Numbered from the stretch's first letter, positions 29,999-33,598 are shown. The stretch: DNA of 64,000 bases from a phage (GCA_014913405.1 GCA_014913405.1_3931.1); one strand, 5' to 3'. The notes: generated by a model from the letters alone, not told the origin. A program made the numbers and translations.

Positions 29999-30004
29999 AG
30001 TACT

Positions 30005-30033
30005 TTACAGGGGGCTTATAGTTCGATAAAGTA
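30005..30033 (+). promoter_or_regulatory. type-A cassette: promoter TTTACA-17-TAAAGT overlapping hairpin GGGGCTTA...TAAGCCCC
   Basis: -35 TTTACA at 30005-30010, -10 TAAAGT at 30028-30033; four more copies before the ORFs at 30463, 31532, 32329 and 33599. Confidence 0.45.
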
Positions 30034-30083
30034 AGCCCCAGATAAAGAGCTTTACCACTAAATCCTAAATTGGAGATTCAAAA

Positions 30084-30374
30084 ATGGCTACTATCAAAAA
30101 CGTTGTAATCCCTGTAAAAACTCGTGATGACGCTCGCATCATGGCGAAAAAGTTAGGCGGGAAAGTGGTTGACAACGGAAAACAATCTGCTGTAAGATGG
30201 GGTGTGAAGGCTGATAAACAGTTGAAGTTAAAAAATTCACCAATAAATCTTTTTACATGTGTAAACACTATCGGAAAGACAAATGTATACACGAAAAAGG
30301 CATATATTAGACGCGTAGCCTTAACATCTCCAATTCGTACAATGAGAAGTCATGCAAAGCTGAAAATTAACTGA
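30084..30374 (+). CDS. hypothetical protein (accessory array ORF 2)
   Basis: conserved leader and RBS GGAG. Confidence 0.5.
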   Translation: MATIKNVVIPVKTRDDARIMAKKLGGKVVDNGKQSAVRWGVKADKQLKLKNSPINLFTCVNTIGKTNVYTKKAYIRRVALTSPIRTMRSHAKLKIN

Positions 30375-30462
30375 TAAAGTACTTTACAAGGGGCTTAAAA
30401 GTTGATACCTTAAGCCCCAGATAAAGAGCTTTACCACTAAATCCTAAACTGGAGATTCAAAA

Positions 30463-30759
30463 ATGAAATTATCAAATAAAGTTCGTGAAAATCTAAGCAA
30501 ATTACTCAACAAAATTGATTTCATTGAAACATCAAGAAATAGCCATGATGTTATGGAATGGTTACACGGCAAAATAAAAGGTCGTCGTGTAGTGATTTGC
30601 TTATGGAATAGTTGCAGGGAGTATAAAAAACCTGTATTGCAAGTCAATATCTATGATGATAATCTTAAAAGTCCTGTCAAATCTAAAAGCGATTTACTAG
30701 ATTCTTATGAGATAACTGTAAATGGCAAAGTGTCACGTAAAGAGGAAGCACCATGTTAA
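30463..30759 (+). CDS. hypothetical protein (accessory array ORF 3)
   Basis: conserved leader and RBS GGAG. Confidence 0.5.
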   Translation: MKLSNKVRENLSKLLNKIDFIETSRNSHDVMEWLHGKIKGRRVVICLWNSCREYKKPVLQVNIYDDNLKSPVKSKSDLLDSYEITVNGKVSRKEEAPC

Positions 30760-31085
30760 TGACTGGTATCACTGCAATCATTGCCATTTTCGCGCTCTAT
30801 AAGGCATATAAAGCCTATAATCTAGCAAATAAGGCAATCACACAACAGGTTAGTAATAGCCTTGTAATGAGCTTTCTAGAGCGGTTGAGCGATGAACAAT
30901 TAAAGCGGTTAGAAATGAGCTTCAGATTCAGGGCGAGAACTTATCAAATCAGCGACATTTTCAAAGATGATTTTCAATTAGTCGATGATTATAATTCTCT
31001 GATAAATGCTTTAAATATTAGTGACTTAAAAGACTATCATACTGTAATTGTTCAAGAGTTGAGCAAACGAAAACAAAACTGTTGA
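30753..31085 (+). CDS. hypothetical membrane protein (accessory array ORF 4)
   Basis: N-terminal hydrophobic helix ITAIIAIFALY; start overlaps the end of the previous ORF. Confidence 0.45.
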   Translation: MLMTGITAIIAIFALYKAYKAYNLANKAITQQVSNSLVMSFLERLSDEQLKRLEMSFRFRARTYQISDIFKDDFQLVDDYNSLINALNISDLKDYHTVIVQELSKRKQNC

Positions 31086-31110
31086 CACTGATTTTTAGAT
31101 AGATTAAATT
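31082..31110 (+). promoter_or_regulatory. type-B cassette promoter, TTGACA-17-TAAATT
   Basis: TTGACACTGATTTTTAGATAGATTAAATT; followed by hairpin GGGGAG...CTCCCC and the conserved leader. Confidence 0.5.
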
Positions 31111-31173
31111 ACTCATCAACGGGGAGCAATAATCTCCCCCACTAAATAAAGTCCTTAAACTAGGAGATTCAAA

Positions 31174-31446
31174 ATGTATACTACTAACAACGGTCGCACT
31201 TTAAATGTCACTCTACGTCACTATGTCGACGGTGTGATGCACTTTGAGGATTTACAGGCTGAGCAACATATCTTAAATTGGCAAGTCGCAGGACTCCAAA
31301 AAACTGCTACCGGATACGGCAAAAAGATTCCAACTAGTTGGAAAGTATACTATGAAGGACGTTTGCGCAGAATTTATCAGGATGTATGTGGCAATAGCAC
31401 ATCAAGTTACATCATAGTAAAAGGTAAAAAACTGCATTTAGTATAA
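31174..31446 (+). CDS. hypothetical protein (accessory array ORF 5)
   Basis: conserved leader and RBS. Confidence 0.5.
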   Translation: MYTTNNGRTLNVTLRHYVDGVMHFEDLQAEQHILNWQVAGLQKTATGYGKKIPTSWKVYYEGRLRRIYQDVCGNSTSSYIIVKGKKLHLV

Positions 31447-31531
31447 AGTACTTTACAGGGGGCTTATTAGTCTGTACAGTAAGCCCCAGATAAAGAGCTT
31501 TACTACTCAATCCTAAATTGGAGATTCTAAA

Positions 31532-31936
31532 ATGGCTATTAATAATCGTGAGATGTCAATCTTAAAAGCACGTTTAACCGTTAATCGAATCAATGTTATT
31601 ACATCATCAGCACCGGATGAAACATTGCACAACATTATCGGAAAGATTCAAAGCGTTATCTTAGACGTTGAAAACGTAAAAAACTCATTGGCTGACGTTG
31701 CAGCAGGTATCACGCTAGACGGTGCACAATATGAAATGGCCGACATGTTAGGCAAATCTAAGGTAATGAATAAAGAGCTTGATTTAAAAATGTTTAGATT
31801 TGCCGTGAAAGTGTGGCTATCTGTTGAGTATGATGCTAATTTTGCAATCGCTGATTTCTTTGCCACTTGGTTACAACGTAATTTGGCAAATCATGACTTT
31901 CGTGACATCTGCGACGCAATTTATGCAGAACTCTAA
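31532..31936 (+). CDS. hypothetical protein (accessory array ORF 6)
   Basis: conserved leader and RBS. Confidence 0.5.
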   Translation: MAINNREMSILKARLTVNRINVITSSAPDETLHNIIGKIQSVILDVENVKNSLADVAAGITLDGAQYEMADMLGKSKVMNKELDLKMFRFAVKVWLSVEYDANFAIADFFATWLQRNLANHDFRDICDAIYAEL

Positions 31937-31944
31937 AAATTTTA

Positions 31945-31973
31945 TTGACACTGATTTTTAGATAGATTAAATT
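31945..31973 (+). promoter_or_regulatory. type-B cassette promoter, TTGACA-17-TAAATT (second copy)
   Basis: near-identical to the copy at 31082; followed by GGGGAGGGAATGACCTTCCCC. Confidence 0.5.
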
Positions 31974-32037
31974 ACACATCAACGGGGAGGGAATGACCTT
32001 CCCCACTAAGTAAAGTCCTTAAACTAGGAGATTCAAA

Positions 32038-32235
32038 ATGGCTATTATCAACGGTTTAACCATTGAAACCACGCACATCAAAGACATTAAAGTTGGTGAT
32101 GTAGTTCTTTCCCACGGCGTAGAAAAAACAGTCACTGCAAAGGATATCAAAGATGATTCTTTCATGGGTAGAACTCTCTTCGGTGATTCTTATTGCTTAG
32201 GTTATCTTGCAGTTTTAAAAGTTGTCAAAAATTAA
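32038..32235 (+). CDS. hypothetical protein (accessory array ORF 7)
   Basis: conserved leader and RBS. Confidence 0.45.
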   Translation: MAIINGLTIETTHIKDIKVGDVVLSHGVEKTVTAKDIKDDSFMGRTLFGDSYCLGYLAVLKVVKN

Positions 32236-32328
32236 CTGATAAAGTACTTTACAAGGGGCTTATAGTTCGATAAAGTAAGCCCCAGATAAAGAGCTTTACC
32301 ACTAAATCCTTAAACTAGGAGATTCAAA

Positions 32329-32871
32329 ATGAAATGCTTTCACGGTACTACTCAAGAAAACTTTATCAACCTGATTAATAACGGTGATAAACCATCAGGT
32401 GTATGGAATTGTTCGGATATGGACGGCAATTTTTACGTGTACCCAGAAAATAAACTCTATGGTGATGATGAGGAAGAGATAGCATCGGAAGGTATCCAGC
32501 AAGCTCTAGGAAATGCCACTATCACGGCAGCTTTTCAGATGAAAACTCAAAATATTGTTATCTTAGAACTTGACATTCCAGAGGATGAGCTGAATGATGA
32601 TTATTCTTGTGATAACATGTCAAATATAGCAAGCTTTACAGAGTACTTTGATGTAAATTGGATTAAAAAGGTCTATACAACAGAGTTCAACGCTATGTAT
32701 TCACCTTTTTGTCTCCCTTCACTGGATAACCCAAATTTAAATTATCTTGATGAAACATTGGAGCTACTTGCTAAAAGTATCCAACAATCCGACAGTATTC
32801 AGGTTTTTTGTGACATCATGGATACACTGACAGAAAACATTGTAGAGAGTGATTTAAAGGTCTTTTTCTAA
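32329..32871 (+). CDS. hypothetical protein (accessory array ORF 8)
   Basis: conserved leader and RBS; 180 aa, acidic. Confidence 0.5.
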   Translation: MKCFHGTTQENFINLINNGDKPSGVWNCSDMDGNFYVYPENKLYGDDEEEIASEGIQQALGNATITAAFQMKTQNIVILELDIPEDELNDDYSCDNMSNIASFTEYFDVNWIKKVYTTEFNAMYSPFCLPSLDNPNLNYLDETLELLAKSIQQSDSIQVFCDIMDTLTENIVESDLKVFF

Positions 32872-32937
32872 AAACCTATACATTCACCTTATAAACACTG
32901 ATTAACCCCTTACAGGGGCTTTTAGAGGGCTTAAATC

Positions 32938-33171
32938 ATGCTTACAACCATTTATCTCATCCTTTCCATTTGTAACGGCCATTCATGTGACTTTAAAGGG
33001 CTTGAAGAGTTTACAGGAAGTAAAGAAAATGCTATTCAAGTTTGCCAGATAGCAAGACAAGACTACCCCGCCAGTGATGATATACAATGTTACTTTAAGA
33101 CAGAAGATGACGAAGGAATCTATTTCGACAGTGTCGATGGTCAATATGAAATTATCATTGAAAAAGACTAG
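32938..33171 (+). CDS. hypothetical protein (accessory array ORF 9)
   Basis: ORF track; this one lacks the conserved leader. Confidence 0.4.
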   Translation: MLTTIYLILSICNGHSCDFKGLEEFTGSKENAIQVCQIARQDYPASDDIQCYFKTEDDEGIYFDSVDGQYEIIIEKD

Positions 33172-33264
33172 ACAAGCCTGATAAAAGTCTGTAAATTATC
33201 AATCAACGGGGAGGGAATGACCTTCCCCACTAAGTAAAGTCCTTAAACTAGGAGATTCCAAAAA

Positions 33265-33513
33265 ATGTATACTAAAACTCAACTAAAAAACATGGTTAGC
33301 AATGGCTTAATGGATGAAGTCTATAAAGAGTGTAGACGCTACGGGGAAATTAAGGATAAGACTAGTTATGAGTATACCCACACAATAGACTTTAAAACCA
33401 ATGAGAAGAGGACTGACCTTGTTACTGTAGTAGTGATTGAGTATAAACGAATTATTTGGACCTTTGAGCTAGTAAAAGGTGAGTGCACAGAGATAGAATA
33501 TAAAGACGCTTAA
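33265..33513 (+). CDS. hypothetical protein (accessory array ORF 10)
   Basis: type-B cassette upstream. Confidence 0.5.
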   Translation: MYTKTQLKNMVSNGLMDEVYKECRRYGEIKDKTSYEYTHTIDFKTNEKRTDLVTVVVIEYKRIIWTFELVKGECTEIEYKDA

Positions 33514-33598
33514 AGTACTTTACATGGGGCTTATTAGTCTGTATAGTAAGCCCCAGATAAAGAGCTTTACCACTCAATCCTAAACTGGAGATTCTAAA

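Follow-up and report, generated by a model that had tools for sequence, protein, structure and literature searches.

Type-A cassettes in the early region of a Felix O1-like phage: a predicted sigma70 promoter enclosed in a covariation-supported hairpin

The stretch analysed here, 64,000 nt of phage DNA read on one strand (GCA_014913405.1; hereafter the window), carries an array of small early genes in which five copies of an intergenic element, the type-A cassette, lie within 3.6 kb and alternate with six cassettes of another type (type B). The 6-kb region around the cassettes shows 98.5% identity to Escherichia phage wV8 and matches 256 phage records, nearly all of them Felix O1-like (Felixounavirus, Ounavirinae); on this sequence comparison the window is assigned to the genus Felixounavirus, subfamily Ounavirinae. 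The genes flanking the cassettes all (10/10) encode small proteins that fall in PHROGs of unknown function, and in relatives the cassette region sits downstream of rIIA/rIIB. Our analysis indicates that the type-A cassette is probably a composite device, namely an early promoter for host sigma70 on DNA and a hairpin on read-through RNA, the latter probably involved in processing or 3′-end protection.

A search of the window for GGGGCTTA-N13-TAAGCCCC gave exactly five matches, all on the + strand, at 30011, 30390, 31459, 32255 and 33526. The same pattern was absent from 100 shuffled sequences, none being expected by chance, and the five copies that the original prediction had placed upstream of five open reading frames (ORFs) were thus recovered. 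The downstream 26-mer AGATAAAGAGCTTTACCACTAAATCC was found at the same five sites with 0–2 mismatches and a repeat finder returned a single five-copy family of 103 nt each. The cassette itself is about 90 bp long and intergenic, its 3′ end being the ATG of ORF 30084, 30463, 31532, 32329 or 33599. The shared consensus proposed earlier needs small corrections: the base preceding GGGG can be A, G or T, and copy 3 reads CTTTACTACT. The loop sequence varies as proposed, but its length is 13 nt in all five copies rather than 11–14. A mechanical sigma70 scan passed four of the five copies (TTTACA-17-TAAAGT, TACAGT, TAAAGT and TATAGT), and the fifth, with its -35 at 30383, carries TACCTT preceded by TGn, an extended -10. 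The positions are as follows (MFE, minimum free energy in kcal/mol; predicted +1 inferred from spacing).

29996..30086, + strand, copy 1 cassette, from the stop codon (TAA in TAAAGT) to the ATG of ORF 30084
29996..30054, + strand, copy 1 predicted three-tier hairpin, MFE -22.4, z -3.8, with covariation
29996-30001 and 30049-30054, + strand, copy 1 helix H1, TAAAGT pairing with GCTTTA
30003-30007 and 30043-30047, + strand, copy 1 helix H2, CTTTA pairing with TAAAG
30011-30019 and 30031-30039, + strand, copy 1 helix H3, GGGGCTTAT pairing with GTAAGCCCC, loop 30020-30030
30004..30009, + strand, copy 1 -35 hexamer TTTACA, from the sigma70 scan
30027..30032, + strand, copy 1 -10 hexamer TAAAGT after a 17-bp spacer, predicted +1 at A 30040
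30375..30465, + strand, copy 2 cassette to the ATG of ORF 30463, hairpin 30375-30433, MFE -22.7, z -4.7
30383..30388, + strand, copy 2 -35 hexamer TTTACA
30403..30411, + strand, copy 2 extended -10 TG-A-TACCTT (hexamer 30406-30411), predicted +1 at A 30419
31444..31534, + strand, copy 3 cassette to the ATG of ORF 31532, hairpin 31444-31502, MFE -26.8, z -4.6
31452..31480, + strand, copy 3 promoter, TTTACA 31452-31457, 17 bp, TACAGT 31475-31480, predicted +1 at 31488
32240..32331, + strand, copy 4 cassette to the ATG of ORF 32329, hairpin 32240-32298, MFE -22.6, z -4.2
32248..32276, + strand, copy 4 promoter, TTTACA 32248-32253, 17 bp, TAAAGT 32271-32276, predicted +1 at 32284
33511..33601, + strand, copy 5 cassette to the ATG of ORF 33599, hairpin 33511-33569, MFE -28.6, z -6.0
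33519..33547, + strand, copy 5 promoter, TTTACA 33519-33524, 17 bp, TATAGT 33542-33547, predicted +1 at 33555

The sequence has been recorded before. In the wV8 GenBank record (EU877232) the five type-A elements are annotated as repeat regions DR_1/DR_7/DR_9 without function, and for one copy there is an annotation as Rho-independent terminator on the minus strand. In the Felix O1 genome paper type A appears as a ‘57 bp direct repeat’ at the gene 15/16 and 19/20 junctions, and the type-B repeat is printed as well; neither was given an interpretation, a promoter or a hairpin (Whichard et al. 2010, PMC3185647). The Felix O1 direct repeat and DR_1/DR_7/DR_9 represent the type-A element (CTTTACATGGGGCTTAAAAGTCTGTAAAGTAAGCCCCAGATAAAGAGCTTTACCACT). 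A literature search with the type-A motif string returned only the Felix O1 genome paper; the text of the wV8 paper mentions no repeats, promoters or terminators, and the UAB_Phi87 paper gives BPROM counts only. An Rfam scan of positions 29400-35200 found no family, even at E<=1.

Folding of 77 nt around each copy gave the same three-tier structure in all five cases. The outermost helix, H1, pairs UAAAGU with GCUUUA (6 bp) and contains the upstream stop codon. It is separated by a 1x1 A.A mismatch from H2, in which CUUUA pairs with UAAAG (5 bp) and which contains most of the -35. An invariant 3x3 internal loop, CAN/AGA, then leads to H3, where GGGGCUUAN (GGGGYUUAN) pairs with NUAAGCCCC over 9 bp, spanning the spacer and the last base of the -10 and closing a loop of 10–13 nt that holds the -10. 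The whole hairpin, about 20 bp and about 59 nt, extends from the upstream stop codon to approximately +15 and encloses the entire promoter. The stem across the spacer and -10 that the original prediction described is therefore present, but it has 9 bp rather than 8 and is merely the top of a larger structure. The MFE of the five window copies ranged from -22.4 to -28.6 kcal/mol with z scores from -3.8 to -6.0, and none of 200 shuffled sequences folded as well. The ‘AGATAAAGAGCTTTA’ block is conserved because it forms the 3′ arm of the hairpin.

Homologous copies were collected by scanning viral contigs with a flank-only pattern, TACTTTACA-N25-40-AGATAAAGAGC, which is unbiased toward the stem. 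This gave 46 loci from about 30 Felixounavirus-type contigs, in which a relaxed search yielded 154 matches; 147 had a 29–31-nt middle (55 distinct middles) and the remaining 7 are chance matches. When the cassette alone served as query, a sensitive BLAST search extended the collection to Mooglevirus (Citrobacter and Shigella phages) and Kolesnikvirus (Erwinia and Cronobacter phages), with about 78–82% identity. Four Mooglevirus/Kolesnikvirus sequences were added, and the final set contains 100 distinct full elements from three genera. Pair counts were anchored from the ends, with no fitted alignment. RNAalifold applied to a MAFFT alignment recovered 6 inner and 5 outer pairs only, and this result was replaced by the end-anchored counts because MAFFT misaligned the 29-, 30- and 31-nt length classes.

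In the 55 unfiltered middles, H3 pairs 1–9 were paired in 55, 55, 55, 55, 53, 55, 54, 51 and 51 cases, respectively. The first five of these, the outer H3 pairs, had to pair in the filter used for the 100-element set and for the palindrome test. Putative H3 pairs 10–12 are not supported (paired in 11, 18 and 22 of 55 middles). Over the 100-element set, 97.6% of cells were paired across the 20 pairs, compared to 42–56% when the 3′ partner was shifted by 1–2 nt. Compensatory double changes were observed at 6 of the 20 pairs. Pair H3.3 is G-C in 91 elements and U-A in 8 (Erwinia phages, GGTG...CACC), H3.7 U-A in 77 and A-U in 23, H3.8 A-U in 73 and U-A in 19, and H3.9 occurs as five pair types; in the outer helix, H1.5 is G-C in 76 and U-A in 14, and H1.1 U-A in 72 and A-U in 3. 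Pair H3.5 shows the classic path, with C-G 49, U.G 50 and U-A 1. For H1, which lies outside the search anchors, the observed pairing was reached by 0 of 2000 partner shuffles. Single genomes carry 2–5 different inner-stem sequences, with pairing kept in nearly all. The comparison of homologous phages thus upholds the earlier suggestion that structure is under selection: the stem is kept by covariation, beyond the conservation of sequence, as far as the collected copies indicate. The 59-nt hairpin is, on this basis, a candidate for a new RNA family.

The wobble pairs indicate the strand on which the structure is read. G.U pairs occur at H1.6 (84%), H3.5 (50%), H3.9 (19%) and H1.3 (11%), and are A.C mismatches on the opposite strand. 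Being valid on the + strand only, they suggest that the structure is selected on the sense strand, i.e. in RNA. This bears on the idea that the inverted repeats are DNA operators at which a dimeric protein, of phage or host origin, would switch off the early promoters, the candidate sites being GGGGCTTA/TAAGCCCC or the near-palindromes TAAAGTACTTTA and TAAAGAGCTTTA. The symmetric sequences do overlap the -35, the spacer, the -10 and +4 to +15, which is the classical repressor layout, and the outer G4/C4 and H2 are invariant. However, T opposite G at H3.5 (half of the variants) and H1.6 breaks the DNA symmetry while keeping RNA pairing, 2–5 different inner-stem sequences coexist in single genomes, and both arms are changed coordinately in Erwinia phages. 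We consider the operator explanation highly improbable. A variant in which the outer arms form two palindromic operators was rejected: arms that deviate from the majority keep their own symmetry in only 2/109 and 2/50 cases, as against pairing between arms in 42/109 and 34/50. For example, TAGATTTCTTTA and TAAAGAGATTTA pair at 12/12 positions between arms versus 6/12 and 8/12 within arms. The minus-strand terminator annotated in wV8 was also discarded, since all genes here are on the + strand, G.U becomes A.C on the minus strand and no T-run is present.

Pairing on the + strand could also be read at the DNA level, either as an extruded hairpin or cruciform that modulates the promoter, or as a self-spreading mobile or recombinogenic palindrome with no regulatory role. 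G.T is tolerated in single-stranded DNA hairpins, and covariation alone cannot separate + strand DNA from RNA. In addition, the cassettes clearly mark recombination junctions, and comparable elements of T4-like phages, the promoter-early stem-loop (PeSL) cassettes, have been called ‘mobile’ and form mini-circles (PMC2839356). A cruciform, however, needs both strands, and the opposite strand is A.C-mismatched at two pairs in 50–84% of copies. A purely selfish repeat would not account for the register with neighbouring genes that is kept by TAnnnT, the stop codon, the Shine-Dalgarno sequence and the ATG. No polymerase of the N4 virion type is reported for Ounavirinae (PMC3185647), although the window genes were not searched for one. 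An explanation at the DNA level therefore appears very unlikely to us.

The second signal in these copies is that of a promoter. The -35 TTTACA was invariant (100/100 distinct copies) and TAnnnT followed it in 99/100, the spacing being 17 bp in 91 copies and 18 bp in 8; the sole exception is TAAAGC. The sigma70 geometry noted originally is thus borne out across three phage genera, and promoter activity is predicted from it. Of the 41 variants in the 30-nt class, 39 have T and A at loop columns 17 and 18 (1.72 bits) and 38 have T at column 22, while the next three columns after 18 carry 0.06–0.49 bits; within the loop, conservation is confined to the two bases relevant to a -10. Conserved positions -12, -11 and -7 with a free middle are the signature of a sigma70 -10. 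In all length classes, the first purine 7–8 nt past the hexamer, taken as the predicted +1, is the A of AGATAAAG; it corresponds to the A of AGAUAAAG, the sequence right after the inner stem. TG, as in an extended -10, was present in 8/8 distinct variants with the weakest hexamers, and in 21/23 hexamers without A at positions 4–5 compared to 19/40 of the others (Fisher p ~4e-4, indicative only as the variants are related). The weak copy of the window (30383) is among the TG-bearing variants. TG would thus compensate for weak -10 hexamers.

Alternatively, the cassette could be an RNA element only, its sigma70 likeness a by-product, with TTTACA conserved on account of the pairing of CUUUA with UAAAG and the TA of the loop a feature for RNA recognition; the downstream genes would then be expressed solely through read-through from type-B or other promoters. 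Of the -35, five of six bases coincide with paired or structured positions, as does the last base of the -10, the hexamers match the consensus at 3–5 of 6 positions only, and nearby type-B promoters are much better (TTGACA-17-TAAATT). Nevertheless, the unpaired CA of TTTACA is conserved in 93/94 for each base, and TA keeps its distance of 17–18 bp from the -35 while stem and loop lengths vary among the 29-, 30- and 31-nt classes. The presence of TG where the hexamer is weakest and the purine start found in every length class are equally unaccounted for by such an element. Hybrid cassettes of Erwinia phage M7 and Cronobacter phage phi63_307 keep CTTTACA before a different hairpin and lack the AGATAAAG arm, hence the -35 is retained independently of its pairing partner. 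Finally, Felix O1 ORFs 16 and 20, located just downstream of two type-A repeats, are maximally expressed at 5 min, and Felix O1 is reported to have no RNA polymerase of its own (PMC3185647). A purely RNA-level role thus seems improbable.

We also considered whether the outer TAAAGT serves as -10 to a promoter lying further upstream, in which case the hairpin would be in a 5′ untranslated region as in type B. No conserved -35 was found upstream of this -10-like hexamer, TTGACA matches there being about as frequent as at displaced control positions, and the candidate was rejected. A separate observation concerns the discriminators (30031-30039 and equivalents, AAGCCCC or AGCCCC), which lie between the -10 and the predicted start and are G+C-rich. 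In E. coli, G+C-rich discriminators are typical of promoters with short-lived open complexes, sensitive to ppGpp/DksA and supercoiling. Early-gene output might depend on host physiology via this feature.

The relative position of start site and hairpin suggests how the two parts would work together. At the DNA level, the cassette would act as an early promoter for host sigma70 (TTTACA, 17–18 bp, (TGn)TAnnnT). Its own transcript would contain the 3′ arms only, within an unstructured leader of about 45 nt carrying a GGAG Shine-Dalgarno sequence. Since the predicted +1 (30040 in copy 1) lies directly 3′ of the inner stem, only read-through RNA would fold the complete hairpin, and the device would therefore act on the upstream message or on read-through. 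The proposal of a dual role, promoter on DNA and RNA element on upstream transcripts, is implied by this predicted arrangement. TAA or TAG is found inside the TAAAGT hexamer in 108/127 distinct cassettes, and GGAG followed by ATG 34–43 nt after the core. The hairpin, directly after the upstream stop codon, would mark the end of the upstream message, most likely as a processing and 3′-end-protection signal, with some PeSL-like attenuation of read-through possible too. As a result, each small early gene might be expressed as its own unit, regardless of upstream context.

A hairpin in this position could instead be a PeSL-like terminator or attenuator that stops or damps read-through from the upstream promoter rather than a signal for processing or stability. 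The stem-loop of the phi1 PeSL lowered lacZ expression to an extent similar to that seen with rrnB T1 (PMC2839356), and the type-A inner stem is G4/C4-rich like PeSL stems and follows the stop codon directly. Intrinsic terminators share with type A a GC-rich stem right after the stop codon, but have a loop of 3–8 nt and a U-tract, whereas type A has a loop of 10–13 nt and extra outer helices. No U-tract follows either the inner stem, which is followed by AGAUAAAG, or the whole hairpin, followed by CCACUAAAUCC. The U-tract is missing from all five window copies, none of which was called by a terminator scan (0/5), in agreement with the original statement that the element is not a classical terminator. 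The same region does use canonical terminators with T-runs, e.g. at 24705, at 26501 and the one annotated in wV8 near 32906. Moreover, pausing or the blocking of an exonuclease would need no more than a 9-bp stem, yet 11 outer pairs are kept by covariation, which favours a reader of double-strand length. We judge termination or attenuation unlikely as the role of the hairpin in place of processing; attenuation, as measured for a PeSL stem-loop, is nonetheless a strong alternative.

A single junction of the array, at 32906-32925, has no cassette; a small CCCC-TTACA-GGGG hairpin with CTTTT after it is located there. Its equivalent in wV8 is annotated as a Rho-independent terminator; it is a conventional one, unlike the type-A hairpins.

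For the processing role, E. coli RNase III provides the closest comparison. Its substrates consist of about two helical turns, in which coaxially stacked short helices are allowed, with a central internal loop; the internal loop limits cleavage to one strand and leaves a 3′ hairpin that protects against 3′-5′ exonucleases (PMC1540722). The predicted 6 + 5 + 9 bp of type A, with the 1x1 mismatch and the 3x3 internal loop, are of this two-turn size, and the invariant CA(N)/AGA loop lies between H2 and H3. The early RNase III signals of T7 (R1.1 type), characterised by the Nicholson laboratory (PMC1540722), are likewise intercistronic hairpins, located in the polycistronic early RNA of a coliphage and made of about two turns of stacked helices with a central internal loop; the outcome expected for them, and for type A if it were cleaved, is an upstream mRNA protected by a hairpin at its 3′ end and a downstream mRNA whose 5′ end is new. 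Unlike type A, T7 R1.1 signals have no promoter; the type-A loop is large (10–13 nt) because it houses the -10. A more specific and rather doubtful version is a two-route insulator, in which RNase III would cut read-through RNA at the 3′ side (AGA) of the internal loop, at or next to the sigma70 start. If this were true, both routes would yield the same downstream mRNA, with 5′-P versus 5′-PPP, the upstream mRNA would be left capped by a 3′ hairpin, and the early genes would be context-independent plug-and-play units, which would explain free gene shuffling.

Several points weigh against the composite reading. The arguments for an RNA-only element return here, since the -35 and part of the -10 are paired in the hairpin, so that their conservation is partly explicable by RNA structure alone, and the -10 hexamers are modest; the GC-rich discriminator could in addition make the promoters weak. 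Reverse transcription PCR timing in Felix O1 is coarse, and other ORFs of the early class have no type-A cassette. Within the structure, H2 (CTTTA/TAAAG) never varies and says nothing either way, its invariance being uninformative because the collection was anchored on ACTTTACA and AGATAAAGAGC and H2 lies in the anchors. The copies are related and the shuffle statistics thus overstate independence. The likeness to RNase III substrates is a resemblance of size and shape, and PeSL stem-loops have been shown to terminate, which favours attenuation over processing. A literature search found no mapping of transcription starts, 3′ ends or cleavage for Ounavirinae, nor any transcriptome or start-site data for Felixounavirus or Felix O1. 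We infer promoter activity, start site and hairpin role, whether RNase III processing, exonuclease block or attenuation, from the sequence.

PeSL cassettes are known from the T4-like phages phi1, RB49, PST and nt-1 (Arbiol et al. 2010, PMC2839356; Comeau et al. 2014, PMC4122927). They are repeated in hyperplastic regions, beginning with the stop codon of the preceding gene and running up to the next Shine-Dalgarno sequence and start codon (PMC2839356); their promoter and terminator activities have been measured and a role in modular shuffling described (PMC2839356; PMC4122927). Type A shares this architecture: both are repeated intergenic cassettes of variable, ORFan-rich early regions, bounded by the upstream stop codon and the downstream Shine-Dalgarno/start codon, with a sigma70-like promoter whose G-tract/C-tract stem-loop lies between -35 and -10 or overlaps the -10, and both mark junctions of gene insertion, deletion and replacement. 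The lineages differ, PeSL having been described only for T4-like myoviruses and type A belonging to Ounavirinae, and the comparison is one of architecture, not of sequence homology. With every architectural feature found in a different lineage, type A is, judging from its predicted layout, equivalent in design to PeSL. New with respect to PeSL are the three-tier hairpin of about 20 bp, of which the stem-loop is only the tip and which encloses the whole promoter, the support from covariation and sense-strand G.U pairs, the RNase III-like geometry, and a predicted +1 that falls on the 3′ side of the internal loop.

To describe the gene junctions, 250 nt upstream and downstream of 128 cassettes were clustered. 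The clusters amount to 12 upstream and 13 downstream modules, joined in 21 distinct junctions, with more than one partner at the cassette for 7/12 upstream and 6/13 downstream modules. The patterns U0->D0/D2 and U2->D0/D2/D4 are those expected from deletions or exchanges between neighbouring cassettes. Type-A cassettes thus mark module-shuffling junctions. Hybrids of type A and other cassettes in Erwinia phages correspond to crossovers inside the element. A third cassette type was observed in Erwinia and Cronobacter phages, with the sequence TTGCAA-A-GGGGTTAYGGTTATGAGAYTATAACCCC, its -35-like hexamer lying one base before the hairpin; in the hybrids, the type-A 5′ half (..GCTTTACA) is fused to the hairpin of this third type, which is direct evidence of recombination inside cassettes. 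The third-type and hybrid cassettes were located as follows.

L048, 12085-12164 and 9595-9665, third-type and hybrid cassettes of Erwinia/Cronobacter phages
L049, 4872-4951 and 2385-2455, third-type and hybrid cassettes of Erwinia/Cronobacter phages

It would follow from such repetition of the cassette that recombination between copies deletes, swaps and inserts gene modules.

The type-B cassettes of the array lie at the following positions.

29523-29616, type-B cassette
31082-31174, type-B cassette
31945-32038, type-B cassette
33169-33262, type-B cassette
34646-34743, type-B cassette
34973-35066, type-B cassette

In each of them a GGGGAG...CUCCCC hairpin comes after a promoter close to consensus (TTGACA-17-TAAATT and variants). 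Types A and B alternate in one array and share the leader and Shine-Dalgarno block (CACTAAAT...CCTAAAYTGGAGATTC), and the -10/start region of type B, TAAAGTACTCATCAAC-GGGG, aligns with the 5′ arm of type A, TAAAGTACTTTACAN-GGGG. The type-B hairpin starts 3–4 nt past the predicted start and would be 5′-terminal in its own mRNA, whereas the type-A promoter is inside the hairpin; this 5′-terminal position suggests mRNA stabilisation by type B.

Other features were noticed elsewhere in the window. Between the + strand early genes and the - strand genes, about 1 kb of ORF-poor DNA (35719-36763) contains twelve same-strand copies of CTTGTTA, some exactly 11 bp apart (35868/35879/35890 and 36142/36153); this iteron-like array might serve as a replication origin or provide binding sites for a regulator. 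ARAGORN placed 26 tRNA genes at 46624-51835, each on the + strand; such a cluster is expected in Felix O1-like phages, and the tRNA T-arms account for repeat families D2 and D6-D8. Repeat family D5 corresponds to two adjacent 243-nt copies with 71% identity at 42103-42594, presumably the product of tandem duplication, be it inside one gene or between genes.

Typing of Salmonella and E. coli, biocontrol and therapy all make wide use of Felix O1-like phages. According to the Felix O1 genome paper, temporal control of transcription and passage past terminators were not known (PMC3185647). The early ORFan array now has a testable map of predicted promoters, start nucleotides and hairpins at transcript boundaries. 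To a specialist of phage transcription the type-A design would be unsurprising in principle; it was formerly listed merely as a ‘direct repeat’. The cassette is also a candidate compact natural part for synthetic biology, combining promoter, insulator and ribosome-binding site. Taken together, these results would extend the PeSL principle, in which a stem-loop housing a promoter also serves as a recombination module, beyond T4-like phages, and suggest a general way to keep shuffled accessory genes expressible.

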